A stretch of DNA of 62,802 nt, counting the filler, from Dugesia japonica (lineage: Eukaryota), in assembly GCA_001938525.1 (NCBI GenBank). It is 6 parts of 6 records of this genome, joined end to end, with 100 filler letters (N's around TTAATTAATTAA, not from the genome) between each part and the next. Parts side by side here need not be neighbours in the genome. Positions count along the whole stretch, not along the records: positions 32,416 to 42,030 come from MQRL01593305.1; 5 more parts are not named here. The stretch is one strand, 5' to 3'. Numbering within the stretch: position 1 is the first letter of the stretch; the number at the start of each line of letters is the position of its first letter. Shown in pieces: positions 10,183 through 57,815 of the stretch. A program made the translations under genes and the position numbers. The notes under the pieces were generated by a model that saw only the letters and a program-made list of their open reading frames with translations, did not search any database and was not told where the DNA came from.

Positions 10183-10236
10183 ATTTTGGCGCCCTAGGTG
10201 GTTGACTAGTTCGCCTATATGGTAGAGCCACCACTG
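10183..10236. mobile_element. hAT-type transposon terminus
   Basis: ggcgccctaggtggttgactagttcgcctatatggtagagccaccactg; its reverse complement starts CAGTGGTGGCTCT, typical of hAT ends. No partner end was identified. Confidence 0.45.
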
Positions 10237-11662: not shown

Positions 11663-13270
11663 TGTTGGGTTTTTAGGATTTTGATGTTTATTCTTTTGCT
11701 AAATTCTCTGATCACATTTCATATTTAATATTTTCATCATTTCGAGGGGCATACTTAAAAACCACCAGCATTTGTGTCACCTCTGTGACATACCCCTATT
11801 TTCCACGGGTTCAGCGTGACTTTGTGGTATCGCGTCTTACTCATTAGATTTCTGAACCCTCACAGCAATCTTTCACTCATATGCTCAACATTTCTTATTT
11901 TTAAGACAAGAATAAACGACCAAAATAAAATTCTGCAAATGTAACGGCTCGATTTAAGTACACTATGTCAATATCAAACTTCGTTAATGATTCACAAGAT
12001 GCATAGTAAATGACGACCACAAAAATATCAAAATAACTCAACGACTTTCGGCTAATATTTATTTTCACATCAATCTTTGAATCCAGATCCACTGATACAC
12101 AATTGTCTTCAGCCTCTGTTGGCACGGATCTGTAATTTAGCCACATCGTTCGGAGGGTAGCGAACATTGAATTCTCACGATCTGCGTACGTTTTGATTAC
12201 GTCCGCCATGAGCCTATTAGCAAGTTGAAGGGACAGCTCTTTCTCCCTGAGCTGTTCATATTTAGAAGTCTGTTTCACTGCCGGCCCCTTCAATCTTAAT
12301 ACTTCGTCTCAGAGTTCCCTGCGCTCCTCCTTCCATCGTTTCTGCATTGTGATCACTTTTTTTCTTGAAACTGTTTCTTCATCACTTTTATTCACTGAAA
12401 TATAAACGCCGATTATAATAATTATGCCATAAGATAAAGTTGTATAAATAAATTTGATGTAAAATTATTTTAATCGTTGCAACCTCTATCAACATAAATA
12501 AATCGGTCACTCAATTTTATTATCATAACTTATATTTTACAATTTCTATTTATTTAAATAGGAGTCTAAATTATAATAATAAAATGAACAGTCCAAAATT
12601 ATGACATACACATCACCTGGCGTATTCACAACCAAAAGACTAACAACTCAATTAACACAAATATTTATTTTTTGCACATTGTTCATTTAAAACCTTCCTC
12701 AACTGGCCGCTCTACATCTAGGCCCGTCACTTCTCGTATGATCTGTCGTTCTTCGGCTTCGGCGATGGCCTCGTTCGTATTAGCAAGAGATCTTATATTT
12801 GTTATCTGGATAGGATTGTTAGATATCTCCTCTTTGAGCAATTTTATCTGTGATAGAAAGATCGAGAGATCGAATCAGTGGGTTTTTATGACCAGCCATT
12901 TCATTGTCTACTTCCAAATTAATTATCATGTCGCGAGTAACTTTGACCTCGTTTCCCAGCATCTCTCGCACCTCGGACCATTCAATATAATATCTTCCCG
13001 ATTCGTCGATATAGGGTCAGATATAGGAGGTCTCTTAAGCATTTTTTTTTGTTTGGGAATCTATGTTATTTAAGTTAAATAATGGTTATAAATTAAAATT
13101 CGAGAAAGCTGAAGGAAAATTAAAATTTTATGAATTATTGGTTCGGTTTCTTCGGCCTGTGGCCTATCAGTTCTTCTTCCCTGCCCCTGACGTGCGAACC
13201 AGAGAAGATGACGACTCGACATCGCCATCTTTTCTCGTTACCATGTTTGTGGAGCTCTCGAACGATATTC
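11663..13270 (-). mobile_element. 3' part of a TGTTGGG/CCCAACA-terminated element carrying a decayed spliced coiled-coil gene (relative of 35689-39713)
   Basis: Terminus at 11663. Subterminal DNA similarity to 39520-39713. Exon 12394-~12000 (EQLREKELSLQLANRLMADVIKTYADRENSMFATLRT) is similar to 39116-39415. Upstream exon ~13060-12694 has in-frame stops. GT-AG intron 12693-12395. Confidence 0.7.
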
Positions 13271-14645: not shown

Positions 14646-15077
14646 TTGAAGTGTTAAAAATAAAAAATCACTGAGACAATTAATAAATAATAGAGCAACA
14701 ACTGTTATGTGTATCCTATGAAAATAATTGTGTTGGGTTTTTAGGATTTAAAACAAGTACTAATCTAATTTCTAATATTAAATTCTAAGAAAGTAAGTAA
14801 TTAAGTTAAGAGATTAAGGAAATTAAGAAAATTAAGAAATTTAATTTGTAATGATATTTAAACAAAGGTGATACATTTAACAAGCGAAGGAAATATTTAT
14901 TCTGGGTTCTTCACGTGTAATCAAATAAGTAAATTGAATATTGAAGAGCAGTAAGACATGCCACGATAAAAGTTCGCCTTCACTTAGAAAGGGTACTCTA
15001 TTATTTTGGACACGGGTGGCGTATTAAAATTATGATATAAATGATTAAAAGGATATCTCATAGGTAATTTCGCGTAT

Positions 15078-15345
15078 AGTTATTCAAAGGATTTCAAGTT
15101 AATAAGCTTTATTGGTTTTCTCAAGCACGCATAATTATTCAAAGGATTTCAAGTTAATAAATTTCAATAGTTCTTCTAAAATGTGCAAAATTGTTTTTAA
15201 AAAAATAAAGTTAATGGATTTCAAGTTAAAATGTAATTATGCTTCTCTCAGACTATTCAAAGGATTTTAAGTATATAGATTTCAATAGTTCTTCTAAAAG
15301 CGCGCATTTTAACGGATTTCAAGTTAATAAGTTTCAATGATTATG
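15078..15345 (+). repeat. Degenerate tandem repeat (~55-60 bp unit, core ggatttcaagttaa, 5 copies)
   Basis: (tattcaaa)ggatttcaagttaataa..tttcaatagttcttctaaa recurs near 15080, 15135, 15215, 15253 and 15313. Confidence 0.8.
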
Positions 15346-16107
15346 AATTCAAATATTAAAACAAATTTTTAGAGGTACCTAATTACGACTCAAATATTAA
15401 CAATTACGATTAAATTGATGTAAAAGGATTTTAACAGATTATGAGTACGACTTAACTATTAAATCGATTTCAGAGGAAAGTAAAAGGAATTATGACTTAA
15501 ATAATATAAAAGTATAAAATAATTTTAATTAATTATGACTATAACCTATTGTTAAACGAATTTAAATAAATACTAGAGAGATTGCCATGACTTAATGTAT
15601 AAACAAAGACTTTGGGTAATATGGATGTTAATCTAATACATTTAAAATTTAGGCAAATGATTTAATTTTTTTTAAGGGAGAAAAAAAAATCAATAATCAA
15701 ATTTCTGGGTTCGGGTCAAAATACAAACCAAAACGTAAACTCAAGCTACCAGGATATTTCGAACCATGACTTATAAATGAAATTTATAAATAGTGACGGT
15801 AACGGTAACTTATCTGTATTAATCCTTAGTCATAATAAAGTATTCGAAGAGGACGTCGAATTTAAACAAGCCGGGAGTGGAGAAAGAGATTAAATTAACT
15901 TCAACAAGTAAAATCAAAGTAAATTATAAAGATAAGATTTAATTAGAAAGTTAATAATGCGGGTAAAAATAAGTACGGGGGTATATTAAAAAGTTAAAGG
16001 TACAGAGCAATCGATCGAGCAAGCACAATCAAGTCGGAAACCGTTGTAGCATTCTTGGCATTATCCAAGTAATTAGTTTATAATTATTTGTAATTTAGAA
16101 AACAATT

Positions 16108-16840
16108 ATGTACAACGAACATTATATAAGAAGAAAACTAGTAAAGCGTTATCACGGTGAGGCATTCAAATTAAATCCGGAGGAAATAAACGAATTCCTT
16201 TTAAGCTACGAGGAACACGCCAAAGCATTCAAATGGGAAGAGGAAGATAAGATTAATATGATACCGCTCCATTTAGAAGGAACCGCCAAGATGCTATATA
16301 GACTGCACATACGGGCTACAGGAGAATCTTTCAAATCATGTAATGAGATAGAGCAATTACTACGAAAAAACTTTGAAATCCCAAAAGAATTCCTGCAAGC
16401 ATTGAGAGAAATATTATACTGTAAACAACAAGAAGGAGAAATTCCGACACTATGCCATAAGGTTTAGACAACTCCTTCCAATGAAACATTGGTCTCCCGA
16501 AAAGGATAGCGCATGTATCAATCCCTATATTGAGGGAATTTGGGATAAACAATTACAAGCATTCATCAAAAATAAAAAACCTCAAACCTTAGAAGAAGCA
16601 ATCAGAATACACCAAGAATATGAAACGGCAACATAACAGGTAGATGAACGACCAAGACGATGTAATAAATGTCGACAAAAAGGATATCAAGAAAACCATT
16701 GTTGCTATATAAAGAAAAAATGCGGGAACTGTGGAAGAAAGGGACATTTAATGGAAGAATGTAAAAACCCAATGTTACTTCTTTAAGAAAATTGGCCACC
16801 AAGTACTAAACTGTCCTAAAAAAGGATATCGTAATAGTTA
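16108..16840 (+). pseudogene. Gypsy gag-like gene 1 (capsid-like domain plus CCHC knuckles), frameshifted
   Basis: EFLLSYEEHAKAFKWEEEDKINMIPLHLEGTAKMLY..LRKNF..CKQQEGE is the retrotransposon gag signature. KPQTLEEAI and the knuckles CGNCGRKGHLMEEC and (C)YFFKKIGHQVLNCP follow in shifted frames. Confidence 0.8.
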
Positions 16841-17091
16841 AAATAATATGAAAGAAGGTGAAGAAGTGCGTTGGTCAAACGGAAAATTAAAAATATATAC
16901 AAAAGAAACTACGGGTAGTCGCTAGGAAAGATTGTTCATGTTGAACATAAATTCTGGAAAACCACTAAGAGGGACTAATGAACCAACAAGTTTTGTTACA
17001 GTAGGAGAAAATAATCAATCAGCTTGCAAAATAATGGGATCATTATAAATCAGGAAGAAAATGAAGGGAAAAAAGATACAATCCGAAAAAC

Positions 17092-17732
17092 TTGGTAGAG
17101 GCAGAAGTAAGTGATAGAGAATACGCACGTTGGTGGGTTGCATTTCAACAAATTATGAAAAGGAAACAAGAAGACAACGAAACTTATCAAGAATTCGCAG
17201 CCACAATAAAGGAGTTAGCAAAAGTAGCAAACACAACAGATGAGCAAAGGATAATAGAATATTTCAGATCAGGCTTACGAGACCCATTAATAAGAAGCTA
17301 CGTGGTTTCAAGTAAACCTCCAGACATGGCAACTGCTATATTAGAAGCAGAAGCAATGAGTAAAGTATTGGCAGAACAACGACTAATTATGGGAAATAGA
17401 ACCGTTAGTCAAGGAACAATATATAAACAAAATAGATGCCGAAATTGTCAGAAAACTGACCACAGTACAATCAGTGTACAATCATCTATACATTTTGCAG
17501 CATTTGCGGTCGGAAAAATCACCCCATGGATAAATGCTGGCAAAAATATTGTAGTAAATGCGGAAAGAAGGGGCACCCAGAAGAGAGATGTCTACTCAAG
17601 AGAATCAAAACAGAAGAGGATCAAAGTTCAAGAGACGATAACGAAGTTAACGAAACTCATAACCAACAAATTGTAAACCAAAGCAAGGAATCAACAAAAT
17701 TAATTAATGTAACCTTAATAAAATCAGTATAA
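17092..17732 (+). pseudogene. Gypsy gag-like gene 2 (capsid C-terminal region plus three CCHC knuckles), frameshifted
   Basis: RKQEDNETYQEFAATIKELAK..IIEYFRSGLRDPLIRSYV..P.DMATAI, then CRNCQKTDH, CSICGRKNHPMDKC and CSKCGKKGHPEERC. Confidence 0.8.
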
Positions 17733-23063: not shown

Positions 23064-23987
23064 ATTTTACTCAAAACAAGATTGCTTTGAATCCATTTGA
23101 TGATGAAAGATATATTTTAGATGATGGAATTACAAAACTTCTAAATGGTTATATATAAAATTGCTTAAATCTCAATCACCTCTAAGACATACAAGAAGAG
23201 TAAATTTTTAAAAACTAAACGAGTATATTTAATACATGAAAGTGAAGATTATTATTTCTTGAAAAATTAATTTGTGTAGTAAAAAGGAGATGTAGTAAAA
23301 TTATTTTTAAAGAAAAACCCAAAACAGTTTCATAAAAATAAATATAAATATATTAGAAAACAATTACTAGAATGTTTTGATTTTGCTAAATCAAAAAATA
23401 TTGATTCAATTTTCTGGGAAAGATATTTACCTTTTCTTTTAGCTGATGATTTATTAAACAATTAATAAACAAAACCCATATCTAAACCCATATATTTTAC
23501 CCTTTCCTTGCTGGATTATTTTTTCACATTTATATTATATCCAAAATCAATCAGTTATAGTATCCAATTTAACAGAAAAGTTAAACTCTGTAAAAGATTT
23601 CCCATGGAATGGAAAATTTGGTCAATTATTTTCTCAAGAATGTTTAGGTTGGTTCATTTCTAGGCGATTCAGTCAATTATTTACTCACAGCGGTCAGATT
23701 TCTGTTGACAGTACTCAGATTTTAGTTGAATGTACTCAGAATTTAGTTCACAGTGCTCATAGTTTGGTTGATATGTTGGGTATTATTACTCAACAAAAGA
23801 TTTATGGTTCGAAAAATATATAATTATGATTTTACGGGTGTTAAATTCTTTATCTTTAATTGTGTGTCGATACAATATTATATAATCNNNNNNNNNNNNN
23901 NNNNNNNNNNNNNNNNNNNNNNNNNNNNNNNTTAATTAATTAANNNNNNNNNNNNNNNNNNNNNNNNNNNNNNNNNNNNNNNNNNNN

Positions 23988-29820: not shown

Positions 29821-30673
29821 ATTATTATTATTATTATTNNNNNNNNNNNNNNNNNNNNNNNNNNNNNNNNNNNNNNNNNNNNNNNNNNNAAGATAATTAT
29901 TATTTTTACTAAATAAAATAGTAGTGAATTAGAGAAAAAAGAGTTCTTAAAATACAGAAAAAAATGTTCGTTAAAATGATCAATGTATTTGATCTATGAA
30001 AATTTAGGTAATAATATTGTCTCAATTTCTTCGCTGATAGTCAAATTGATACATTTTTAATTAACATTCAATAATTATTGATAATTAATTAATTAATTAA
30101 TTCTTGTTGCTTTCAATGGAAATTAATTATTTGCAGAGAGTATGATGTTACAATCACTGATTTCGGAAAATGTTGGCGAACTGGAATTGCATTCAATGCA
30201 CTTATAGACGTGTTCAGTCCTAATCTAGTCGATATGAAAATAGTTATGCAAAGCACACCACAAGAAAATATTGAGAGAGCATTTGATATTGCTGAAAAGC
30301 ATTTAGGCATCGCTAAATTGTTAGACTCAGAAGGTGGGTTCTTTATGAAAATCGTTTGATTATTATTGTTATATTATTTAATGTTCAGATGTAATTGCTG
30401 AGAAACCTGATGAAAAATCGATAATGACATATGTCTCACAATTTCTAGAATTGAAAATTACAAAACCCGTCTCACCAGCAAAGAAAATTAAATTATCAAA
30501 TCAAGTCAGTTTTATTATAAATAATAAAGAATAACTTGTTTAAATAGGAACCTGTTAAATCTATTGAAAAAGAAACCAATGAAAAAGTTAAGCGTTTCAT
30601 TTTAAATGTTAAAGAATCTCGACTTGAAAAATTGAAACATGTCGATATCACAACATTTAACGAAATATTTAAA
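23988..30673 (+). CDS. Nesprin-1/MSP-300/calmin-like protein, N-terminal tandem calponin-homology actin-binding domain, partial spliced gene
   Basis: Exons in consistent phase: 23988-24082 (VKDLFVDIRDGLMLIYLLEVLSG), 24138-24221 (KLHFLSNIKIALNFL), 29390-29482 (IKLVNINPLDIVEGKSSIVLGLIWSIILYFQ), 29532-29656 (IEE..KLLTWIQ), 30137-30333 (DFGKCWRTGIAFNALI..NIERAFDIAEKHLGIAKLLD), 30389-30504 (DV..EKPDEKSIMTYVSQFL), 30548-30673. Confidence 0.92.
24946..25573 (+). mobile_element. Internally deleted hAT transposon (Blackjack-like ends) in an intron
   Basis: Ends tacgggtgccaggta...tacctggcaaccctg with an imperfect 8-bp TSD (gctgtatt/tctgtatc). Internal IPVSNANVERIFRVMGNLWT..VKSELCI is the hAT dimerisation motif. 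Confidence 0.8.
25680..28462 (-). mobile_element. Decayed hAT transposon (TTF zinc finger/DUF4371, Tip100/ZMYM-like transposase), 3' truncated
   Basis: Minus-strand pieces NDPCLWP..IGPKQ, VYCFSCKIF..GYCDWKH..HEKSKAH, YYAIILDSTPDIS..EHITIIVRFV, FYVPCASHSLNL and VKPVSDTRW. Terminus cagggccacgccaagcgggg at 28462. Confidence 0.9.
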
Positions 30674-32415: not shown

Positions 32416-33300
32416 GCTGTCCTTGTGGATATTAGTCGTTTACTATTTTTGCTAATTATTTTGATCATTTTTTGGATTTTTTCTATCCAATCTATTTCTG
32501 CTACTAATTCTTTATTCTCTACTCTAGTTCTTATTTCCAAGGTCTCTTTAGTTATGCAATTTTGGCCTTGCTCTTTCTTGATATCTTGCTTCTCTCTTGG
32601 TTTTGTGGCTTCCTGATTTACTTCCTTTGTTTCATCCTTTATCTGCAGCATATTTATCATTTCCATATGAGCTTCCAGTTTTGGTTTTTCAATCCGGAAT
32701 GTAGCAAAATCCAATTTTGTCCCCAGTAACAATTTCGGCATTAAATCTGATCCCAATACTGCATCTACATTGGTTTTCATTACCAAGAATTGTTGCTTTA
32801 TTGTTTTTTTCTTGAAGTTGTGCATTGCATTCTAATGTTCCAATAATCTGCACGGTTTCCCCATTAACACCTGTTGTATGGGGTTTTATTTCTTTTCTTT
32901 TGTTTCGGGATATATTTTTTATATTCAATACTGATCGGGATGCTTCCGTATCTAAAAGTGTTTTCAGTGGTTGGTTGTTGATTCGTACTATTAATGAAAG
33001 GCTAAATCCGCCATCTTGAGTTTCTACTACGGCTATTTGCTCATTTTGTTCCTCTTCGTTAGGTTCCGTGTTTGTTTTATCTTCTGGGGTTATTTTATTC
33101 TCATTTTGCACCATTTCCTTTGGTGCCTTTTCTCCTCCATTGAGCTTTAGTTCGGTTAAGGCTTTTCTTAGTCGAGTGATTCTTTGATGATTACTTTTCA
33201 TTTTTTCGCGTAACTGATGGTTTTCTTTGAACAGGATTCCTGCTATCTCTTTATTCCCGGTATTTTCAGCATCTTTATCTTGTCGTTTTTGATGCCATTG
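32416..33300 (-). pseudogene. Gypsy-type retropepsin (aspartic protease) region, decayed
   Basis: VRINNQPLKTLLDTEASRSVLN (DTG mutated to DTE)..TGVNGETVQIIG, then in a shifted frame FLVMKTNVDAVLGSDLM. Confidence 0.82.
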
Positions 33301-33499
33301 TACATATTTAATTGGAAAACGGTTTTCTTTTTAATTACGACTTCTTATGGCTTCTGTTAGATTCTTTGGTCCTGCAAATTCTATTCTGTGACATAGTCTT
33401 GCGATATGGCCCTATTTTCCACATATATAACACACTATATTTTTTATTTAACAATCTTCAGCTTGGAGCCCTTGTTTGTTACAATTGTAACATTTTTGT

Positions 33500-33820
33500 A
33501 CCCCCCCTCCGCTGGCAAAAAATTTGTGGCAAGAATTTTTGTGGCATAAATTTTTTGTTAGTGGCGCATTGCCACTATTTTTTTCCATTGAGGACCCCCC
33601 CCCCGCTGGCAAAATATTTTGTGGCAAAAATCTTTGTGATTAAAATTTTTTGTTCCTGAAATTTTTTTATGGTTAAAATTTTTTGTTCCAATAAATTTTT
33701 TATGGTTCAAATTTTTACCCTTGAAATACAATACTCATTCGCAATTTGCTGCTGAACTATATTCTTTATAATTTATTCTTGAAATACAATACTTATTCGC
33801 AAATTGCTGCTGAACTATAA
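33500..33820. repeat. Paired direct repeats upstream of the Gypsy protease relic
   Basis: cccccc(t)ccgctggcaaaa.attt.gtggcaa occurs twice (33501, 33595); gaaatacaatact.attcgcaa.ttgctgctgaactata occurs twice (33723, 33781). Confidence 0.75.
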
Positions 33821-34197
33821 CAATCTTTATATAACTTTTACTCTTATAACTTATTTACAAATTGCTTATGCCCGGAATAACCAGTAAAATTTCGTCGCAT
33901 GGACCAGAATTAGGCGATACTATTCGTTGCCTTCATGATTTGCATTTTGCTTGTACAGGCGCATTAAATAATGCTGGTGACGAGTTAGTTGGTTAAATTC
34001 AGTAGTTGTGGCTACTATGAGACTTGTATAAGCCTAGATCTGTATTGATCGTGTCCTCTGAAGTGTATTTAGTACGTCCTGGAAGTAAGTGTACTACCGT
34101 TAATCACATCTATGATTCGTTACCTTGTATAAAACCTGGAGGGTTTATCGCTTTCCACCGAGACTGGTTTTCCCTTCCTGTCCAGTCGCTTTCCTCA

Positions 34198-34284
34198 TTT
34201 TATAACAGTCATAACTACTCAAGCAGCTTTTTCTGCGGACAACTGAGCCAATCGTATCTCAGATGTCTGGCTGATCAGACCAAT
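34198..34284 (-). promoter_or_regulatory. Putative LTR-type Pol II promoter: two CCAAT boxes and a TATA box
   Basis: CCAAT at 34248 and 34280 (32 bp apart) upstream of a minus-strand TATAAAA (34204-34198), pointing toward the protease relic. Confidence 0.4.
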
Positions 34285-35688
34285 TTCACAACTGCTAATC
34301 TCGGCTAGTATGATAGTTGAGACACCTTATTGTACTAACTCTTCCTGTGGGTTCTGTTAATTTAATTTTGTCACCTTCCTTGCTCCTAGGCGCGTTGGGA
34401 GTACCATTTAAGTAGCAGGCGAACTCTTCCCTCCATCAAATTTATCTTAATCTTTGTCAATCCTTGTTTCTAGCCAAACTTGTGAGGTAGGAGGACCTCA
34501 CTGTGAACCCTTAATTTATTTCATTTTTATTTCCAACATTATTAATTTGCTCATACGTATCACTATAAGATCTAGAGTTCACATTAATTTCACTATTCTT
34601 ACTTTAATCATGTTGAATTTGCTTTATTCTTAACCATAATATACTTAATTGATTTAATGCATGTATACTTAACTCACTTACTTAATCTAATTCCTGATAT
34701 GCTCTATTTTCGTTTCATACTCGTAATTTTACTCTCTACTTATTTCAAGGTTCTTAATTTGCTTAAATCGTGATACACTTTATATATGCTTTACTTTACA
34801 ATACTGAGTTTAATTTTAATATTCTTAATTTGCGTTGATTTATTGTAATATACTTAATTTACTTTAATATGCTTAGTTTCCTTTAAGATGCTAAGTTCAC
34901 TTTAATTTCAATAATCTTAATTTGCTCCATTTTATATTATTATGCTTAATTTACTGAATTTAATTTAATTTTAATAATATTAATTTACTTTACTTTATTT
35001 TAATACGCTTTACTTCAATTCCGTATTTTAAGGTCTTAATTACTTTAATTTCTTAATTTCTTACTTTATCTAGTTACTTTATTTTCTTTACTTAGTTTTA
35101 TTCCTCCTATAATTTTCATACTTTACGTTCTTAATTACCTTAATTGCCTAGTTTCTTATTTTAATTTCTTAATTTCTTGCTTTAATCTTCTTAATTTCTC
35201 AATTTAACCACTTACTTTCTTAGTTACCTAATTCAATTTCTTAACTTTCTTGCCAGGCTGGTAACAATTTAAAAGTGGGAATACCCATTTTGCGGCAGTA
35301 TAGGCAAACTCTTCTGGCTTAATAAATCCTTTTAACTCAACAATTTCTTTATAATTTCTCAATCTCTTAATCAATTTAATTTCATAATTTTATTTCTTAG
35401 CTACTTAATTTCATAGTTTAACTTCCTAATTCGTTTTACCCTCTTATTTTAATTCTTTTTTTTTAAATTTCTTTATCCTTTTATTTTCTTTAATATTTTA
35501 CTTCGCTTTCTTAATTACTTCAATTACTCTAGCTTCTTACTTTAATTTAATTACCTTCTTAATTATTCATACTTTAATTTATTACTTATTTTTATTTCTT
35601 ATTTTAACTTATTAATTACTTTCATTTCTTCAAAAAAAATTTTTTTCTTTACTTTAATCGTAATTCCTTATTTTATTTTTAATCCTAA

Positions 35689-38600
35689 TGTTGGGCTGAA
35701 ACAGGCCAGTTATTGAAATTTATGTTTAAAGTAAAAAGGAACTAGCAAAGAGAAGAGATAATGCCGCCCAGTAGAAATGAAGTAATAAAGAAAATAGTAG
35801 TAGTAAAAGAGACAATAAAGAATAAAAGAAAGCAGCAATTTCATTAAAATGATAAAGTAAATGAAACTTGGATTAAATTAATGGGAAATGGAGAATTAAA
35901 GAGAAGCACTAATTAGAATAAAGGAAACGAATGAATCTAGTGAGTTAATTATCCAGTGAAAATATAATAAGATATGAAATCAAAAAATAACGATGCTCAA
36001 GAAGAGCATACATTAAAAGAATGCTCAAAAGTCAAATGACGATGAAAAAGGAAAAGAACACTAATTCGATAAATCAATTAATAAATATGGTGGGCTAGAA
36101 ACACGAAAGAAATCAAATAAATAAATCCAGAAACGATATAATGCTCCACACAATAATAATCCACGATGTGATGCTCAAAGAAGATGATAATCAAAGAATT
36201 AAAGCATGAATGCTCAAATGATAAAGGTAGAAATAAAGAAATAATAATTAAATAAACTACGGTTCACGAAATAAAAAGAAAATAGAACTTAATTCTGAAT
36301 TATGCCACAAGTGATAAAAAAAAGAGATAAGCCAAGAAAGGAAATCAAAAAGCTTCGGAATATGCGATATATGATTATGTATAATTATATGAATGTTATA
36401 AAAGTATCAATATATTAAAAAAGGGATATTCGGAATATAATAAGTAATTAATGAAAAAGTAAGATTAAAACAAAAATACTTTAATAAAAAATTTTCGACC
36501 AATTAATTATAATTATTATAGAAAAGAAATATAAAATAGACAAGTATTATATTTGTATTTAAAATAGGTATAAAAATTAGTATAATATGAGTTGGAAAAT
36601 CGTATTATTATAATAAAAGTATATAAATAATTACAATGTAAAATTATTATTATTATCGTATAAATATTATTAAAATTATTATTATCGTATAAATATTATT
36701 ATTTATATAGAAATAAGTGGAATTCTAAAATGAAATTTATATGAGATGAAAGATGATAAAAAGTTAAATGAAAAAAATTTAAATTATATAAAATATTTAT
36801 AAATATTCATGTAATTATCATTATTTATAAAGTCAAAAACAGACTTTGAAAATTATTATTATTTGCAATAAATATTATTATTTTTTTGATTCGTGCCTGT
36901 CCGATGATCATGGATTTCATTGCCACTGTTGCACGTTGGAACCTACATTATTTTTACCCTCACATTGTGTATAGAAATTAAATTCATATGTGACGAGTGA
37001 GCTCCACACATCGTTAAGCAAATAATATATGTGTCGGGTAGGCACCGCACATTATCTACAGTGTATGTGAGGTCTGTTATAGCATATGATGCCGAGTGAG
37101 CACCGGTGATCATAGATAACGATAAAAATTTTATATATCAAATGCGAGTAACCATATGAATAAAAAAGCACATCCAAATTTGGACATAGTAACAGAATCT
37201 GCACGTGAGAACCGCACGATTCGCTGCATTTTCTAAAAATATCAAGTGACAGCCTACAGTAGCTGACAAAATGTGACATTAAAATTAAGCATAAAAGCAA
37301 ACGCTTTTAGACATTAAAAAAAACACAAAAAACTCAATCTCAAAAAACGTTGAGCTCTAGTTTTTTTATAGTTGAAAGAACCTAGTAGCCATTGTAAGAA
37401 AGTGATTATCAAACGAAAACAAAGTAATTTTATTTGTATTTATGTATGATCGGAAGACTGAGACGGTGTTCCTCGTTGACTGGTCACGCCGGCAACGATG
37501 GACATCAGTACTCAGAGATCCGAATGTAATTTCATTTCGAGATCATCCACCATTACACCATTAAATTACTAAATATATTAATGATTACGAAAGATGACAA
37601 TGATTATGAGAAGAGATATTAACAATTGTGAACGATGACAATGATTATGAGAAGAGATAGTAAGGATTACGAAAGATGATAACGATTATGGGATGAGATG
37701 TTATCGATTCCTAATAATGACAATAATAATGAAAGATGAGAGATGATATCATGAGATATGAATGATGTATTGATGGTGAAAGCGTAGGAAGCGATTTGTA
37801 ATAATTTGGTAATTTGGTAAGGAAGTGTTAATGTAACCGTTATGATACTGAGAGACGAGTGGTTCGATTGAGAGGGTGGTAGTTGAATCCAACCTGACAT
37901 ACTATTACATGTTCTTGTCTAATTATTCTATATTTAACGATTTATATGGCTATAATTATTGTAAATGTTTATAAAAAATATTATCACTTTAATTTTATAA
38001 TGATTAGTTTTGTTCTATAGATTTATGCAACTAAAATTTTATAATAGTTTGAACTGGCTGATGGATCATTCGTTATTCGGAGGAGGATGGGTATCTCCGA
38101 AAATAATATATGAATACAAACATGGTTATCAAGATGCAGCATATCAATCAATGAGATATATTAAGCGGCATATGAGATGAATTACTTATGAATTGTGATT
38201 GGAAATCGAGAGCCGAACCTCATCCGTAATGACGAGTGATTGTTAATCGATCAGAGCTCGTGGTAACATCCATTTCATTCTTTAAAATTAAAAATAAATG
38301 GAATAGAGATATTTATGTTGAGGTATTATGAAATACTCTTATAATATGAAGTACCATGGTGATGTTATATTATTTACAGATGACCAATTCGATCACCAAA
38401 GCAGAANCAATGAAATCATTTGCACCGGCCGGATATACATTCGAGACAACACCATGTAACAATATGCCACAGTTGTGGGATTCGGTGACCATGGAGGGAA
38501 CTGACGTCGAACCATGGTGGATCACTCAGGCACAGCTACAGGTCAAGGAGGACAAGATAACGAAGATGCGAGAGGAGATATTAAGACAACGACAGCAATT

Positions 38601-39713
38601 CGCCGAACAGATAAAGAGGATTAATGCTCTGCAGATACGCGTCGAACAGCAGGAAAGCCAACATCAATCGCAAGTGACGGAGATTACTAGATGGCAGCAG
38701 GAGCGTGAAAAGGAACTAGTAACATTTTTAATACGAGTAACAGAACTCGCCAAGCAGCAGCAAATAGTTATTCAGTCCATGAGAACAACACAACGCGAGG
38801 CGGGAAAATATACCTAGCTCTCGGAAAGACTAGCCTGTAAGGTAAGGTTGAAACAGTGCTCCAGCAAGTGCTTGCACCTTTGGACGAGACAGTAGACATT
38901 GTGGAGACAATAATGTGATCCTTGTGACATCAGCAATATAATTTTAGTTAATGAATTTCTGGTCTTAATTTTCTGTTTAAAGTATTAGAGATAAATTTCA
39001 TCTTAAGCTATAATGAGTTAACTTATGAAGTTCTGGTTAACTAATGAAGGATTTTACATTAATTAATTATTTATTTAAGAATACTTATCAAATGCTATAT
39101 CTCAATTATTTCTAGTGACCGAGGCAACGAAACTCATTGATACATCTATGACCGACATTAAAGTCAAATGGTTCGCCATACAGCGAAAATTAAAAAGTGA
39201 GATCATGGAGTTACAGCAAAGAAATCTACAGCTCAAGAATAAAATGGACAAGATCAAAGAAAGAGAGCTGGCACTATCGCAAACATGCCGGGCTATGGCT
39301 GACGTATGCTGATCGGGAAGGAGTGCTGATATCCACGGTTCGCACCTTTACCCAGGTATCGAGACCAGTCAAAGAAATCAACCAAGAAAAAGACATTATT
39401 AATATCGACGAATGATTGTTATGAAATAAAGTTTATTCATAAAATGTTGTATTCAGTGAGTATATTATTGTACAATAACATCCACAATTTGAGAGCCAGA
39501 CTTCAACGAAATTGAAAACTAAGACGGGATACCACGTAGTCCGCTGGAACCGGGAAAAGGAAGATCGTGTTACTAGAGAGAGTAACACAAATTCCTGTCA
39601 TCCCCCGGACAGTACAGATAATCGAAAGAGAAAGCAGTTAGGATTAAGAGAATGAAATTAAAAGCAATACAATCGAATATTAAAACAAAATTAAAAAGCC
39701 TAGCAACCCAACA
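35689..39713 (+). mobile_element. 4,025-bp TG...CA element (giant solo LTR or non-autonomous Ginger-like element) with a CTAA target-site duplication
   Basis: ctaa|tgttggg at 35685-35695 and cccaaca|ctaa at 39707-39717. Both flanks are the same T-rich sequence type, and the strand skew flips at both junctions. Confidence 0.85.
38380..39415 (+). pseudogene. Spliced coiled-coil gene inside the 4-kb element
   Basis: Acceptors tttacag|38380 and tttctag|39116, candidate donor gtaagg ~38842. Q/E/K-rich heptad-like products. One premature stop (38815) and one frameshift (~39305). AATAAA at 39425. Confidence 0.6.
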
Positions 39714-42130
39714 CTAATATACCTAATTACTTTATTCATTTTAATTTTTTTAGGTCTATTTCACTTTTATAATACTTTAATTTTATTTAGTCATAATATA
39801 GTCATAATATCCATTCTGTATTTTAATCAATATTCTTAATTCACCGTTAATTTTATTCTTATATTCTTACTTTATCACGATTTCATTATCCTTTAATTTA
39901 TTTTAAGTTTCTTAGTTTACTTTACATCACAATATAATAACAAGGCTAATAATAATAANNNNNNNNNNNNNNNNNNNNNNNNNNNNNNNNNNNNNNNNNN
40001 NNNNNNNNNNNNNNNNNNNNNNNNNNNNNNNNNNNNNNNNNNNNNNNNNNNNNNAATAACAATAAATTATAATAATGATAATTAATAATCACTAATTATT
40101 AATCATAACGTTATCAAATATTCATTATGTATCATGGTAATACTGAAATGGTAATATTTTTCTTTTTAAATTTGTTTATTCACCTAAATTTTACAATATA
40201 TCGCCATTTTATCAACTACATTTATTTAAAAATGCTCTTCAATTTATAAAAAACATGTTTTTATTGAATGTGATTATTATACAATTCGAAACAAGAAGCA
40301 ACTCAATTTTTTTACATTATTTACGTAATTATTTGCACTTGCTGTCTATATGAAGAAGTAATTTTATATATATATTTTTCTTTTAAAAATTTTTTCAAAA
40401 TATATTTTCATTGATGGTGGAATTTCGTTTTCAAATAAACGAAAGTGTTCCGAAGTGGTCAATGTCGGTAACAGATCCAGGTATTTCAATAGCCATTCAG
40501 AGGGATTCCAACCATTTTAATCATCAAAATAATTGCGAATGATATAATGGTCCTTCTTAGGACCACAATCACTGATTGTCATATAACGAAGAGATCTGGT
40601 TGTTGTTTTTTTTATTATAATTGTAATAGTAACTATAATAATTTATTTCTTTTCAAGTCAATCCCAAGCAGTATAACTTTATAAAAACCTGCGATAATTC
40701 ATACCATTATTAATATAATTCATGCCATATTTATAAGTTTATACTATTGATAGTTAAAACAATAATAATTTAAGGTGTTGATATTTTGCTGAGATACCAT
40801 AATATTTTAAAATAGTTTATTTTGAGAATTCAGGCACAAATTTCTATAAATCATATTCAATAAAAAACCTTATTTTATAAATTTATTTCCAAGCCCTTAT
40901 TTTAATATCTGATTTTTATTTATTTTGAATCTCCCTTAATTCCTACAGATGTTTAGTTATGTGAGAAGAGCATTTTGTTTTGAATCTATGAATAAGTTTG
41001 TCATTAACAAATTGAATTGGATGAGGTCTGACTGAAGAAAGGTTAAAAACCTAGAAAGTGTCACAATGCATTTATTATTAATTAAAATATTAAAATTGAC
41101 ATGGGTTAATTCCAAGCAGGCAATAATTACACGGATCTTATCAAAATTTCCATTGGTCATCAATAATTCAGTATTTAAAGAGAAATTTTGCAATGAATTT
41201 TGACCTGTGTAATTTATAAGCATGTAAAGTCAGACCACGTCCTAAAAACTTTCAAAGCACAATTGATACTATTACAAATTATACTAACTAGCCCCAATCC
41301 CATCTATGCTTCCACAATTACTTATATTTTACCGCTAAAACAATTTATTTAACAATTTAGCGGTCATATAATTCAAGCGGAAACTCTTTTTATGTCGTGA
41401 TTAAATTGAATATGGACACCGCCTACTTTTTACATTAAGAAAAGAAAAATCTACATACCAGCTGAGCCCCCAAAATTCTTGTTGGGGTCTTATCTAAGTG
41501 AGTTGACAAAAATCTAGGGTAATTGACTCATAGCTTCAGTACAGACTCGCACCCCTTTGGTTCGGGTTCGTTTCACATGATACTCGCCTGATTTAAATCC
41601 TACTTATTAATCATTAATTTATTCGATTTCAATTTATAACTGATTTTTATGAATTTCTATTATCAATCAGTTGAGTCCTAAATAATTATAAACTTTTTTT
41701 AATGCGTATCTAGCTGAGTTCATTTAATTACTACTTTAATATATAAAAATCAATACCTTAAGTTTTAAAGTTATCAANNNNNNNNNNNNNNNNNNNNNNN
41801 NNNNNNNNNNNNNNNNNNNNNNNNNNNNNNNNNNNNNNNNNNNNNNNNNNNNNNNAAAAATAACAACACTAACGTAATCTGGATACCGATTTGGAGCAAG
41901 CACAAGAGCATAACATCCATTCCATTCGTCCACAAGTGACTCCAGAGGTTCACCATAGTAGGAGGATAGGTGTACACCGGATCGGAAGTGACGCAATCAC
42001 CGTTCACGCCTCTTTATGTAAATAACAATANNNNNNNNNNNNNNNNNNNNNNNNNNNNNNNNNNNNNNNNNNNNTTAATTAATTAANNNNNNNNNNNNNN
42101 NNNNNNNNNNNNNNNNNNNNNNNNNNNNNN

Positions 42131-47500: not shown

Positions 47501-47545
47501 TTTTTTATCGAAAAATAAAAATGTTTCAAATTTTTTCTATAGAAA

Positions 47546-48178
47546 ATGAGTGCACAGAAAAAAGTTATTCAAGAGAAAAAAGTTGTTCCACAAGAAAAAG
47601 TAACATCTGAATTAACTTTAGTTACATTAATAAAATCAATACAAGGTTTTGATAAAACAGAAGAGTTGAATATTAATGAATTAAAAGAATATTTAAAAAA
47701 TGATTTAACAAGAGAAATTGCAGAAGGTTATTTAAATTATCTTAACGATTTGTATAAAAAATTAGAAGAATTAAAATTACCAGAAGAAAATAAAAATTTG
47801 TTTAAAAAGTTAATAACTATTNNNNNNNNNNNNNNNNNNNNNNNNNNNNNNNNNNNNNNNNNNNNNNNNNNNNNNNNNNNNNNNNNNNNNNNNNNNNNNN
47901 NNNNNNNNNNNNNNNNNNNNNNNNNNNNNNNNNNNNNNNNNNNNNNNNNNNNNNNNNNNNNNNNNNNNNNNNAAGAAAAATTAAAACCTGTAAAAATTGG
48001 TGATTATATATTTTCAGTTCATTATTCTCCTGGTGAAAAGAGAAATGTTACTGGAAAACGTATAAATGTTTTAAGTGAAAATTTAAATCCAAACAAACTT
48101 TCATCAGAAAAATTCAAACGTATTCCAGCTTTAAAACAAATTACGGGATTTGATAGAGTATATGTTAAAAAAGCTTAA
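47546..48178 (+). CDS. Hypothetical viral protein (K/E-rich, gapped)
   Basis: First ORF after the terminus; frame open on both sides of an N gap; no motif recognised. Confidence 0.55.
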   Translation: MSAQKKVIQEKKVVPQEKVTSELTLVTLIKSIQGFDKTEELNINELKEYLKNDLTREIAEGYLNYLNDLYKKLEELKLPEENKNLFKKLITIXXXXXXXXXXXXXXXXXXXXXXXXXXXXXXXXXXXXXXXXXXXXXXXXXXXEKLKPVKIGDYIFSVHYSPGEKRNVTGKRINVLSENLNPNKLSSEKFKRIPALKQITGFDRVYVKKA

Positions 48179-48185
48179 TAAATAA

Positions 48186-48303
48186 ATGGATACAGTTTTC
48201 TATAAAATATTAAGTAATTACAATTTTAAAAACAACTCTATACAAAATTTTTGTAAAGTAAATAATTTCAACGAAAAAACAGTAAAGAAATATTTAAAGA
48301 AAT
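48186..48303 (+). CDS. Start of a small HTH-like viral ORF (rest lies in the gap)
   Basis: MDTVFYKIL..SIQNFCKVNNFNEKTVKKYLKK has a helix-turn-helix-like pattern and starts 7 bp after the previous stop. Confidence 0.35.
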
Positions 48304-48577
48304 NNNNNNNNNNNNNNNNNNNNNNNNNNNNNNNNNNNNNNNNNNNNNNNNNNNNNNNNNNNNNNNNNNNNNNNNNNNNNNNNNNNNNNNNNNNNNNNNN
48401 NNNNNNNNNNNNNNNNNNNNNNNNNNNNNNNNNNNNNNNNNNNNNNNNNNNNNNNNNNNNNNNNNNNNNNNNNNNNNNNNNNNNNNNNNNNNNNNNNNNN
48501 NNNNNNNNNNNNNNNNNNNNNNNNNNNNNNNNNNNNNNNNNNNNNNNNNNNNNNNCACTAAAATATTTCTTTATAAA

Positions 48578-50155
48578 ATGGATACTATTGATTTAGACAA
48601 TAATATTGAATTTTCACATTCAGCAATTAAAAATGATATACTTAAAATTTCACCTTCATCAGGTTCAATAAATAATTTAAATGCAAATGGTGATGTGGTA
48701 TTTCAATCTTTACAATCTACAAATCCATTAGACATTTGCAATTCATTATTATATTTCAGAATTGAGATCAATATCCCAGAAGCATCAAAAGATAAAATAA
48801 CATTAGAAAATAATTTCTTTCCAAGTTTATTTAAATCTATGAGATTAACNTTAGGATCATCTCATATAGAAACTGTAAGTGATCCAGGAGTAATTTCAAC
48901 AATGTTAAATTTTATAACCACAACTGAAACATATAAAAAAGAATATGGTCAAATGTCAGGTTGGTTACCAGATATTAATAAAGGAGATACTGAAGTAAAA
49001 AGTTGGGAAAATAATTTAGGTTATTATAATAGAAAGAAACTTTATGCAACTAATAAATTTGAAGGTTATTTTCAATTAAGAAATTTATTTGGTTTCATGC
49101 AAAATTATAATCGACTTTTATATAATACAATGATANNNNNNNNNNNNNNNNNNNNNNNNNNNNNNNNNNNNNNNNNNNNNNNNNNNNNNNNNNNNNNNNN
49201 NNNNNNNNNNNNNNNNNNNNNNNNNNNNNNNNNNNNNNNNNNNNNNNNNNNNNNNNNNNNNNNNNNNNNNNNNNNNNNNNNNNNNNNNNNNNNNNNNNNN
49301 NNNNNNNNNNNNNNNNNNNNNNNNNNNNNNNNNAAATCAAATTTAGATGCTGGAGGTTATTATTCAATTAAAATTAGTAGTTTAGCATATCAACCAAGAT
49401 TTATTTTAATTTGTATAAAAGATTCAGAAATTTCATTTCAAAAGAATAATAATTTATTTATACAAAAATCTACAACAACCATAAAAGGTGTTGCACCAGC
49501 AGCAAATACAATAAAAAATCATTATTTGAAATCTATACAATTACAATTAAATAATACTTATTATCCAATTAATGAATGTNNNNNNNNNNNNNNNNNNNNN
49601 NNNNNNNNNNNNNNNNNNNNNNNNNNNNNAAACCAATTCAAGTTTCATATTTAAATAGATTATCTGCCAAATCAAATTTAGATGCTGGAGGTTATTATTC
49701 AATTAAAATTAGTAGTTTAGCATATCAACCAAGATTTATTTTAATTTGTATAAAAGATTCAGAAATTTCATTTCAAAAGAATAATAATTTATTTATACAA
49801 AAATCTACAACAACCATAAAAGGTGTTGCACCAGCAGCAAATACAATAAAAAATCATTATTTGAAATCTATACAATTACAATTAAATAATACTTATTATC
49901 CAATTAATGAATGTAAATTTAACATGGAAAATAATGAGATGGTTTTTCCTTATATGAATTATGTAAAATGTTGTCGAGAATTTTTTAATAAAATGAATAT
50001 TAATAATGTTGATGTTACACTTCATTTAACAAAAGATCCAGATTTTTAAAGGAACTCTTTATTGGTGTATTCTTGAAGAGAAATATATTGAAATGAAATT
50101 AGCAAATAATAAAATTGTTATGATTGAAAATGTAAGAGGAGTTGATATCAAATAA
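48578..50155 (+). CDS. Major capsid protein (double jelly-roll, adintovirus hexon/Polinton MCP type); gapped, partly duplicated in the assembly, one late frameshift
   Basis: NLNANGDVVF..NSLLYFRIEI..ITLENNFFPSLFKSMRL.LG...IETVSDPGVISTMLNFI, F.LRNLFGFMQNYNRLLYN, PRFILI, LKSIQLQLNNTYYP and MVFPYMNY follow the Polinton MCP pattern. Confidence 0.85.
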
Positions 50156-50167
50156 TAAATATAATAA

Positions 50168-51466
50168 ATGAGTTATAAGAATTTCATATGTGATAATTGT
50201 GGGAAAATATTATTAAAGAAAAATAAATCAAGACATTTAAATTTATGTATAAACAAAATGAAACAAGGAGGTGATCTTCAAAATTCAAGTGTAATATCTA
50301 AAATTTTAAAACCAATAACAACAGAAAAATATCCTGGAGAAAGACATCTATTTAAACATAATTATACAGGACCAGGAACTAGATTAGATATTAGATTAGA
50401 TGAGAATTTAGTTCCAAAACCTGGTGAAGAACCAATAAATCAAATTGATGCAGCAGCATTAAAACATGATATTGCATATGCAAGTGAAGATCTTAGAGAT
50501 AGACATATTGCTGATGTAAATTTAATACATGATTTAAATAATATTGAAAATCCAACTTTAACAGAAAATTTTCAAAGTGCTCTTGTAAAATTAGCTATGA
50601 AAGGTAAAATCATGATTGGACAGGGACCAAGAAAAAGTAAAATTATAAAAGAAGAATCTGATAACGAACAAAGTGATGATAAAGAAATTTTATCAAAAGA
50701 ACTTCATAAAGAATATAGAAAGACAAAACATTTTAGAAAAGTAGTTGTTTTTTGAAAAAGATGATATTTGGTCTGCAGATTTAATATTTCAGGGAATTGA
50801 AAGAAAAGGTAAAAATGTAATATTAACAGTTATTGATTTATATACAAGATTTGCATTTATTGAATTAAGTAATAACAAAAGTGGAAAAGCAATAAGAGAT
50901 GCATTTGAAAAATTCTTGAAAAAAGTTCTAGAACTCCAAATAAATTATGGGTTGATGAAGTTAAAGAATTTTATAATCAACATTTTAAATCTTTTTGTAA
51001 AAAAAATAATATTGAAATGTATTCAACTCAAAATAAAGGTAAAACAGTTGTAATTGAAAGATTCAACCTAACTTTTAAAAATAAGCTTTTTCACCATTTT
51101 ACTGCCGTTGGGAATCAAGATTTAAACGAAGAGCTTTTAGAAAAAATTGTAAATGATTATAATAACACTAAACATTCTAGTATTAATATTACACCTCAAG
51201 AAGNNACAAAAAATCCAGAAAGTGTTGAAATTGAAATTCCAAAAGTTTACAATCAAAATATTAAATTAAATATTGGTGATCACGTAAGAATAACTAAAAT
51301 AGGAAAAACATTTCCTAAAGGTTATACTTTTAAATGGTCAAAAAGAATTTATGTTATTACTAAAATTTATCATGAACAACCTATAACATTTCAAATCTCA
51401 AATCTTAACGGTAACAAAATACTCGGAAGATTTTATAGTAATGAACTTCAAAAAACATTAATATAA
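50168..51466 (+). CDS. Zinc finger + parvovirus-type phospholipase A2 domain + retroviral-like (rve) integrase fusion, split by two compensating frameshifts
   Basis: CDNCGK..HLNLC; HNYTGPGT..PINQIDAAALKHDIAY..RHIAD (Ca loop and HD dyad); KELHKEYRK..RKVVV / DDIWSADL..LTVIDLYTRF / PNKLWVDEVKEFYN..IERFNLTFK..DYNNTKHSSI..GYTFKWS..GRFYSNELQK. The first and third pieces share a frame. Confidence 0.9.
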
Positions 51467-51467
51467 A

Positions 51468-51713
51468 ATGGATTATAAATGTACAGGTGATGAAGAAACA
51501 TTTGATAAAATAAATGAAGAAATACAAAACAAAAGATATGAAATATCTAATAGTTATGATGAAACTAAAAAATGTCTTGAAGAGGAATTAGAAGTATTAT
51601 TAGAAGAGAAGTATGAAAGTATGCGTGAAATAAATCACATTCAAAATTTAATATTTAAATATAATTGTACTAACTCTAGTGAATGGGAATTTGTATTAAA
51701 ATATGGTTATTAG
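51468..51713 (+). CDS. Small acidic coiled-coil hypothetical viral protein
   Basis: 81-aa ORF packed 1 bp after the integrase stop and 2 bp before the ATPase start. Confidence 0.6.
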   Translation: MDYKCTGDEETFDKINEEIQNKRYEISNSYDETKKCLEEELEVLLEEKYESMREINHIQNLIFKYNCTNSSEWEFVLKYGY

Positions 51714-51715
51714 AA

Positions 51716-52463
51716 ATGTCATATTTCTGGAATAAAATTATAACAAAGTTTAATAATAAAGTCCTTCCAAATAATTTTAGACTTTTAATGATTGGATCTT
51801 CAGGTTGTGGTAAAAATGTTTTATTAATGAAAATGTTATTAAATGTTATTATTTTTAGATTATGATAATTTAATAATTTATTCAACAACTATTAATCAAT
51901 TTGAAATTCAATTATTATNTATTGGTTTAGAAAATGGATTAACAAAAGAAGAAATAAGTTTAATATTTGAAAAACAAAATATAGTGCCAAATAATTACAC
52001 TACACCATATCAAGTTGTACATTATTTCTTAGATAAAAAATTAGTTACTAAAAAACAAAGAAGTTTAATTATAACTTTAAGTGATAAACCTAATGAAATA
52101 ATTTCTTGTGATAAACTTTCTAAGGAAAAGAAAANNNNNNNNNNNNNNNNNNNNNNNNNNNNNNNNNNNNNNNNNNNNNNNNNNNNNNNNNNNNNNNNNN
52201 NNNNNNNNNNNNNNNNNNNNNNNNNNNNNNNNNNNNNNNNNNNNNNNNNNNNNNNNNNNNNNNNNNNNNNNNNNNNNNNNNNNNNNNNNNNNNNNNNNNN
52301 NNNNNNNNNNNNNNNNNNNNNNNNNNNNNNNNNNNNNNNNNNNNNNNNNNNNNNNNNNNNNNNNNNNNNNTATGATTATGAAGTAAATCTTCACTGGAAA
52401 ACTAAATATAATTATTTTTATTTAAATAAAGAAACTGATGAAATGTTAGATTATCTTTTTTAG
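51716..52463 (+). CDS. A32/FtsK-like DNA packaging ATPase, frameshifted and gapped
   Basis: LPNNFRLLMIGSSGCGKNVLL (Walker A), then FLDYDNLIIYSTTINQ. A tandem 10-bp duplication aaatgttatt (51831-51850) shifts the frame. Walker B falls in the N gap. Confidence 0.87.
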
Positions 52464-53308
52464 TCTAACGTTTCAAAGTATATTCTAATTCTTTTTATTT
52501 CTTTTTCTATTGTTCTAAATGACCAATTTGATTTTAATATTTCTGGATATTGATTAGCAAATTTATATAATTTTATTATTTTATTTATATAATTAATTTT
52601 ATAGTAAATTCCAATTAGTTGTAAATGTATTATCATTTGATTATTACTTTCAAATTTAGATTTTAACAGTTCAAAGAAATAACCTAAATTATAAATACTT
52701 ATTAAAACAATTCTTTTTCCAATATTAAAATTATTATGCCAAAGTTTAATATTATCATTTACATTTTCTAATGATTGATCTATCACCGGTGATATATTTG
52801 GTAACATTATTGTTTCACTTAAATTAAATGTTTCTGGATTAATATTATTCACAAGAGATTTTGAAAAATTTTTATTAAATTCAATTTCATTATTAGACAT
52901 TAATTTTACTATTGATTTTTCTTCAATTATTTCTTTTTGATCTTCACATATTTGAATTTCTTCATCTTCACATATTTGATTTTGAATTTGAATTTCTTCT
53001 TCACTTTCATACATTTGAATTTCATCTTCACTTTCATACATTTGAATTTGAATTTCTTCATCTTCACTTTCATACATTTGAACATGTTTCTTAGGTTTTT
53101 TTTCTAAATTATCATATTCTCTATTCCAAGATTTTTCATTAGATTTATTAAAACCAATCATATCACCACGTACAAACATATTTTCTTTTTTTCTTTTTTC
53201 TACATATTTTTTAAGATGTTTAAGAAGTTCATTTTGATTTGTCATTTCTAAATAACTTTCAAATTGATATTTACATTTATGACAACTGATAAAAAATAAT
53301 TCTTCCAT
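52460..53308 (-). CDS. Hypothetical viral protein with acidic QMYESEDE repeats and a helical C-terminal domain
   Basis: Intact 282-aa ORF convergent with the ATPase (stops overlap). N-terminal CxxC; three to five repeat units at 52935-53085. Confidence 0.75.
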   Translation of the reverse strand: MEELFFISCHKCKYQFESYLEMTNQNELLKHLKKYVEKRKKENMFVRGDMIGFNKSNEKSWNREYDNLEKKPKKHVQMYESEDEEIQIQMYESEDEIQMYESEEEIQIQNQICEDEEIQICEDQKEIIEEKSIVKLMSNNEIEFNKNFSKSLVNNINPETFNLSETIMLPNISPVIDQSLENVNDNIKLWHNNFNIGKRIVLISIYNLGYFFELLKSKFESNNQMIIHLQLIGIYYKINYINKIIKLYKFANQYPEILKSNWSFRTIEKEIKRIRIYFETLD

Positions 53309-57757: not shown

Positions 57758-57815
57758 TAATATTTATAAAAATTAAACAATCTCAGACATCTGAAATACA
57801 TGAATCGTCCTTACA

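Follow-up and report, generated by a model that had tools for sequence, protein, structure and literature searches.

In a 62,802-nucleotide window of Dugesia japonica DNA (GenBank assembly GCA_001938525.1), a 4,025-bp unit is a genuine, repeated mobile insertion, and on balance we favour, with modest confidence, its reading as a solo long terminal repeat (LTR) of a large Gypsy-type family that carries, antisense and within its U3 region, a predicted spliced accessory gene for a coiled-coil protein. The window, the whole stretch of DNA that we analysed, is AT-rich, repeat-filled eukaryotic sequence made of six stretches joined by N-linkers; the unit is on the stretch at 32416-42030 and a relative, hereafter locus 2, is on that at 9522-23887. 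Contig depths given below are sums over shared contigs, from run X3 unless stated, and are not copy numbers. Joints at the unit ends are counted among those listed for run X3 (12 of 16). Feature coordinates are collected in Table 1.

A repeated mobile insertion of 4,025 bp

The sequence-only reading of this DNA had proposed a unit opening with TGTTGGG and closing with CCCAACA, flanked by an exact CTAA duplication and without recognisable transposition genes. Both statements are borne out: the termini by the sequence, by composition steps and by contig joints, the duplication by the sequence, and the lack of gag, reverse transcriptase or integrase inside the unit by the list of open reading frames (ORFs) and by Pfam. 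The terminal inverted repeat is only 7 bp long, with 10 of the first 20 bases matching; asymmetric ends, a short inverted repeat and a 4-bp duplication are the usual shape of an LTR. Pairs of a 7-bp TG..CA repeat with a 4-bp duplication occur 17 times across the window, so the motif by itself is weak proof. What sets the unit's pair apart from the other 16 is a purine step of 0.32 or more at each end (the next best reaches 0.08), and composition change points fall at most 3 bp from the left end and 7 bp from the right. Among the joints listed, two connect unrelated sequence to exactly 35689, one of these running from 39714 back to 35689; no empty-site joint is found among the joints listed (15 of 150 and 15 of 23).

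Bins inside the unit have summed depths of between 76 and 47,797, whereas single listed contigs have about 3-34; the sums do not measure copy number. At the left edge the sum rises from 56 at 35663 to 1,565 at 35738. The left flank is itself repetitive and patchy in depth (33 at 35360, 5,920 at 35296), and in another depth scan the bins that flank this edge are equal. Close to the two ends the depth is alike, at 1,565 on the left and 1,339 at 39670 on the right. A homologous TGTTGGG end lies at 11663 in locus 2, where the alignment scores 82 and the highest of 500 shuffles reaches 50 (z 11.9).

Orientation of the candidate LTR

The strand on which the unit would be read as an LTR is suggested by locus 2. 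The 19-base end occurs there twice, at 11663-11681 and 14731-14749, the copies lying 3,068 bp apart in the same direction and being identical at 19 of 19 bases; the second matches the unit's right end at 16 of 19 bases and its left end at 9 of 19. This second copy heads an A-rich stretch and gag, namely two tandem gag-like frames at 16099-17676 (+), each followed by CCHC knuckles (16721; 17496 and 17550) and broken by frameshifts. An end of the unit's right-end type thus precedes gag-like frames on the same strand, which argues that the right end of the unit is the start of the LTR and that the gene is antisense.

The subterminal hairpin and the reads of expressed relatives both support a minus-strand LTR sense. 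At both loci, the strand opposite the gene gives the hairpin the better fold (z -2.62 versus -2.17, and -2.31 versus -0.70). In the two-sequence consensus that strand has 16 pairs, of which two are changed on both sides, five on one side and none broken (covariation -2.25), compared with 13 pairs on the gene strand, one changed on both sides, none on one side and none broken (covariation -0.5); the opposite strand thereby retains compensatory change and G-U pairs. In RNA run X10, first mates of reads from relatives lie on the minus strand over the coding block (depth 5.85 versus 0, about 15 reads) and on the plus strand over the subterminal region (3.99 versus 0.66, about 12 reads).

A solo LTR with plus-strand sense would instead place the gene in a very long R-U5 region, as a short, spliced, early-polyadenylated mRNA, with the unspliced RNA packaged. 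In its richness in purines and in A, the plus strand resembles the sense strands of nearby gag sequences; the order of end, A-rich arm and ORF is the same as in the unit at 14731; and an AATAAA lies 288 bp from the right end. Against these points stand the right-end type of the end that precedes gag at 14731, the subterminal reads of relatives, which run opposite to the gene, and the hairpin, which favours the other strand; a 2-kb R region with introns would also be very unusual as a matter of general knowledge. We regard this arrangement as quite improbable.

The non-coding parts of the unit are as the sequence-only reading described them: the A-rich arm (AT skew +0.29 to +0.43 over 35700-36499), the GC-richer island from 36900, the short repeats and the subterminal hairpin were all found. 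Shared contig depth is high at 36880-37159 and reaches 21,805 in the bin at 39540-39679, the region of the hairpin. Neither the GC islands nor the arms can be aligned between the two loci, and Rfam gives no match within the unit. By eye, an expressed relative (an X10 loose end at 39598) has, about 110 bp inside its end, a stretch complementary to the unit's terminus that could fold the end back.

A junction between the ends and the case for a DNA-borne cassette

One X3 contig joins the right end of the unit to the left end across four bases, which is the spacing of a two-LTR junction (PMC11054761; here and below, statements drawn from papers cited by PMC number refer to the portions of text covered). 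This end-to-start joint, the similar depth at both ends, and the possession of a 19-base end in common with a gag-bearing element that is otherwise unlike the unit could also be accounted for by a stand-alone non-autonomous cassette, never part of an LTR pair, which would borrow a Gypsy- or Ginger-type integrase through the shared ends and move as DNA with its own spliced gene. Introns in a unit moved as DNA need no special account, and a primer binding site (PBS), a polypurine tract (PPT) and an LTR pair are all unseen. Set against this, the inverted repeat measures 7 bp compared with 40-270 bp in Ginger1 (PMC2836005), an RNA stage is suggested by the strand bias of the hairpin and by the reads on opposite strands, and equal depth at the ends fits LTRs too; we therefore consider such a cassette somewhat unlikely. 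In a wider form, which we think unlikely, the unit would represent a class of gene cassettes, not LTRs, that share integrase-recognition ends with gag-bearing retroelements, move through an end-joined DNA circle (the 4-base junction) and keep a multi-exon gene, in a superfamily whose marks would be a short conserved peptide block and a subterminal hairpin.

Two further classes were rejected. A Ginger DNA transposon does not fit a unit that has no 40-270-bp terminal inverted repeat (TIR), no Gypsy-integrase-like transposase and a target, c-CTAA-t at this one site, other than CCGG/CCGT or RTATAY; the Ginger parallel drawn in the sequence-only reading thus fails on TIR length, target sequence and transposase. 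Non-autonomous two-LTR elements, that is, terminal-repeat retrotransposons in miniature and large retrotransposon derivatives, have two direct terminal repeats within the element, and we rejected them for this unit because self-BLAST shows no repeat between its two ends. The two options offered by the same reading, a giant solo LTR and an integrase-mobilised family, are both apt and we lean to the solo LTR; its further suggestion of an undescribed system is not established.

A predicted gene on the plus strand

Four plus-strand blocks make up the predicted gene. Their GC content is 0.36-0.51, against 0.23-0.29 between blocks (the first being measured to 37525), and in three of the four the shared depth exceeds that of the stretches between them. 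Predicted acceptors end at 38020, 38379 and 39115. The first block has no Pfam match; from our own reading of three X10 loose ends, its frame is kept in relatives, in which codons for Arg, Lys, Thr and Phe have changed synonymously. A donor at 37526 as the end of this block was set aside because a relative's reads continue with sequence resembling the unspliced frame.

The gene in this copy is broken and is a pseudogene, with stops at 38178, 38196, 38244 and 38815, the last of which is absent from most other copies. The donor pentamer is duplicated at 38837-38846 in this copy, and more than half of the X3 contig depth lacks the five letters there. Across the two main exons, 12 differences of this copy are listed; five fall at third codon positions, a number that is uninformative.

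Within the gene, the last exon is homologous to locus 2, and its peptide scores 75 against a maximum of 60 in 2,000 shuffles (0 of 2,000 as high). The last acceptor has the same phase in both loci and lies 19 and 21 codons ahead of an aligned Trp; the stretch of locus 2 that matches the 279-bp intron is 301 bp long with a non-standard donor, and stops are present in the gene of locus 2 as well. The proposal that a homologous gene and end on another scaffold mark a family trait is accordingly confirmed for the end at 11663 and for the last exon.

Heptads are clear in the predicted product. The sequence-only reading had suggested predicting the structure of a consensus protein; AlphaFold2, run on one sequence, returned one helix of 94 residues with a low-confidence part ahead of it. 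In Pfam, coiled-coil matches alone came up, all below threshold, and matches in PDB to the Beclin-1 coiled coil (E 0.005, with 9 bits of bias) and to SYNZIP5 (E 0.16) are generic coiled-coil matches that serve as a lead only. Weak searches for protein homologues of the main exon found none among 189 longer-protein candidates or seven near-length proteins. Scans for related loci were negative for 211 metagenome and 18 viral candidates, and an exact sequence look-up returned 0 of 6. The 18 viral and four metagenome loci picked up by DNA motif scans have no similarity to the window outside the motif and were set aside as chance matches.

RNA reads

Three RNA runs were scanned (about 5,230 million letters, 6-25% of each run). 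They yielded 3, 47 and 10 reads on the unit (n = 60), all of them partial fits and mostly from diverged relatives, and the unit's family looks silent in these samples. Spliced RNA-seq coverage, which the sequence-only reading had proposed as a check, was absent from the three runs, in which neither a transcript of the gene nor a spliced read was seen. Of the intron-containing coiled-coil gene claimed by that reading, then, the exon-like blocks, the acceptors at 38021, 38380 and 39116, the polyA signal and a predicted coiled coil stand, with the qualifications that this copy is broken by stops and that its introns are predictions.

Two modules of the unit, at 37442-37564 and 39540-39679, have contig depths 10-50 times those of their surroundings, and it is these two that show up in RNA. 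This suggests a much larger superfamily with expressed members.

Observations that weigh against the solo LTR

Several observations count against an LTR with minus-strand sense. No pair of unit copies was seen around gag-pol, in short-read contigs that do not span the unit. No PBS or PPT was found beside the four ends examined, as expected for a solo LTR, but locus 2 is also without them. A closing CCCAACA is missing from locus 2, whose second 19-base start lacks an explanation, and the interval between the ends at 11663 and 14731 contains neither a closing end nor a PBS. That second start would fit equally well as the opposite end in a family having a 19-bp inverted repeat, and the argument drawn from 14731 would then be reversed; the gag of locus 2, antisense to the gene, may belong to a separate nested element. 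The gene strand is purine-rich (0.65-0.69 just inside both ends), and the sense strands of nearby gag sequences, with AT skews of +0.26 to +0.48, resemble it. The 4-base junction, seen in one contig only, also fits two tandem insertions with a 4-bp duplication.

The same holds for parts of the strand and gene evidence. The comparison of hairpin strands draws on two sequences, and the strand contrast in X10 comes from one run, from reads of relatives and with the library direction inferred. None of the 60 RNA reads from the three runs falls in 38140-39399, and they show no splice joint. Shared contig depth is at its lowest in the last exon (76), the open length of the main exon is matched by 15 of 300 local shuffles, and the main exon has no similarity to locus 2, 393-678 of 1,000 shuffles scoring as high.

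Proposed mode of propagation

If the unit is a solo LTR read on the minus strand, U3 would start at 39713 and contain the gene backwards, and the 1.2-kb arm would be R-U5. The GC island at about 36.9-37.4 kb could then act as a two-way promoter, with the element's genomic RNA transcribed to the left and the accessory mRNA to the right. Signs of a promoter and polyA site for the element's own RNA are confined to this island and a few reads from relatives on the opposite strand. Because RNA of the strand opposite the gene would be packaged, the introns would outlast reverse transcription. As part of U3, the gene would enter both LTRs, and it would remain after recombination between LTRs had removed the interior; the 4-bp duplication would have been made by the integrase, and the hairpin near 39580 may act in the genomic RNA beside the plus-strand priming site. 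By analogy with retroelement antisense accessory proteins, and as a guess from its shape alone, the protein may be a long adaptor of coiled-coil type with a role in regulating the element or the host cell.

On this solo LTR reading a complete multi-exon gene would be carried by a terminal repeat, so that two copies would be delivered per insertion, and each solo LTR left by recombination would retain the full gene and its promoter. LTRs are normally taken as non-coding (PMC6696364), and such genes would therefore be mis-annotated as orphan host gene families. The unit would also provide a testable case for the role of antisense accessory ORFs, which is an open question (PMC7264820). Were it instead a cassette moved by a borrowed integrase, it would represent a new route of gene mobility.

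Comparison with known systems

The unit resembles the giant Gypsy solo LTRs of planarians (Burro/GYPSM1) and plants (Ogre) in its multi-kb TG...CA form, its Gypsy-type neighbours with CCHC gag, its accessory coding capacity and its coiled-coil (Smc-like) cargo (PMC6431247). Multi-kb Gypsy LTRs are documented in the same source, which gives 1.9-6.5 kb for those of Ogre. Burro/GYPSM1 elements exceed 30 kb and encode one giant gag-env-pol polyprotein. The extra domains of these giant elements, unlike the gene of the unit, are internal or part of the polyprotein, and the text covered mentions no LTR gene (PMC6431247).

Antisense accessory ORFs are likewise documented (PMC7264820), and the predicted gene is like those of Grande gene23, RIRE2, Retand, PvRetro13 ORF2 and Boty in being family-wide and without a database homologue; it would also be like them in lying antisense to gag-pol and having its own promoter. 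PvRetro13 ORF2 has an SMC-type domain (PMC7264820). The Grande/Retand-type ORFs are sited between pol and the 3' LTR, whereas the unit's gene lies within the TG/CA ends that bear the duplication. The word 'intron' is absent from the covered text of PMC7264820 and PMC11963269.

The unit shares with Ginger1 and Ginger2 its TGTNR termini (TGTTG at both ends), the 4-bp duplication, a length within 2.6-7 kb and, as predicted here, introns in the coding region, and differs from them in the TIR, transposase and target noted above; TGTNR termini with a 4-bp duplication are also found in Gypsy LTRs (PMC2836005). Two retroviral genes offer partial parallels.

The HBZ gene of human T-cell leukaemia virus type 1 (HTLV-1) is spliced, encodes a bZIP protein and is coded mostly outside the LTR, and the sag gene of mouse mammary tumour virus lies within U3, in sense and intron-free. 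HTLV-1 HBZ is expressed from an antisense promoter in the 3' LTR (PMC7264820). The predicted gene would be like HBZ as an antisense, spliced, zipper-type accessory gene driven from an LTR, and like sag in having its coding sequence in U3; unlike both, it is enclosed in full, with all its predicted exons, by the unit's two ends.

Already known are giant LTRs, extra ORFs with coiled coils, and ORFs that lie antisense in the interval from pol to the 3' LTR. No whole intron-containing gene inside an LTR was found in the literature covered, the scope of which lay outside Grohme 2018 with its supplements, Repbase and Dfam; the unit's family may already be recorded in Repbase or in published supplements.

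Table 1. Features of the unit, of its left neighbour and of locus 2 (positions in the window).
Feature	Positions	Strand	Evidence or remark
Whole unit, 4,025 bp; candidate solo LTR	35689..39713	sense probably minus	ends, contig joints at 35689 and 39714, composition steps
Target site duplication, left copy CTAA	35685..35688		sequence
Left end TGTTGGG, candidate U5 end	35689..35695	+	sequence
A-rich non-coding arm, putative R-U5	35696..36880	+	AT-rich short repeats at 36643-36807
GC- and CpG-richer island, putative two-way promoter	36880..37440		composition only
Short coding block, 40 amino acids, MYDRK...VDW...	37442..37564	+	kept in diverged expressed relatives; X3 depth 7,747
41-bp tandem repeat, 4 copies	37575..37736		period not a multiple of 3
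Predicted exon	38021..38262	+	3 in-frame stops in this copy
Main predicted exon, long helix/coiled coil	38380..38836	+	stop 38815; phase-1 donor 38837
Predicted GT-AG intron, 279 bp	38837..39115	+	phase 1, GC 0.29
Last predicted exon, leucine-zipper-like	39116..39312	+	homologous to locus 2
AATAAA, predicted polyA signal of the gene	39425..39430	+	
Conserved subterminal motif and hairpin (hairpin about 39566-39590)	39520..39592	-	folds better opposite the gene strand
Right end, candidate U3 start	39695..39713	-	16/19 bases as in the ends at 11663 and 14731
Target site duplication, right copy CTAA	39714..39717		sequence
Neighbour element past the left flank: decayed gag zinc knuckles, coiled coil, retropepsin	32416..33500	-	
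Locus 2: homologous end, hairpin, broken homologous gene	11663..13250	-	reverse orientation
Locus 2: 19-base end (second copy), followed by an A-rich stretch and by gag-like frames bearing CCHC knuckles	14731..17676	+	

Surroundings of the unit

Both flanks of the unit are of one T- and C-rich texture (z 3.7), and a single contig links 35059 to 39847. Together with the decayed gag and protease debris on the left, this shared texture argues that the unit is nested in other retroelement sequence. A search for protein homologues of the neighbouring protease frame, itself a weak search, gave none among 932 candidates.

The debris also allows the unit to be read as a 5' LTR belonging to the gag/protease element next to it on the minus strand, its 4-bp duplication then being a coincidence. 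The unit, an A-rich stretch and gag would be ordered as in locus 2, a chance 4-mer match has a probability of about 0.026 in these flanks, and the left flank aligns weakly with the stretch at 14731 up to the boundary (z 4.0). We consider this very improbable: an X3 contig is identical over 35503-35689 and then diverges at the position expected for an empty site (the remaining 39 letters of the contig were not displayed), the shared texture and the contig from 35059 to 39847 relate the two flanks to each other, depth falls outside the left edge as given above, and the junction has no PBS.

Three minor features lie nearby. At 33505-33716, immediately upstream of the gag knuckles, an array of 14-33-bp sub-repeats with C-runs has the look of an insertion in its own right. 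A GC island at 33700-34340 has a summed depth above 100,000 in run X1, far over that of the unit, and is probably the core of a very abundant repeat. At 40544-40588 (+) a match resembling the histone 3' untranslated region stem-loop scores 26.5 bits, below the gathering score of 34, and no histone gene was noticed.

Other features of the window

A cluster at 47543-53308 has a phospholipase A2-like domain (E 7.9e-10) and weak double-jelly-roll and integrase matches, and is Polinton/Maverick-like. A decayed mariner-like transposon with inverted ends lies at 56496-57767. Two inverted copies of a repeat of about 440 bp, 83% identical to each other, occupy 57816-58233 and 59517-59952. Host exons were read by eye at 30140-30660 and 19200-19300, and resemble those of a calponin-homology protein and of methylmalonyl-CoA mutase, respectively.

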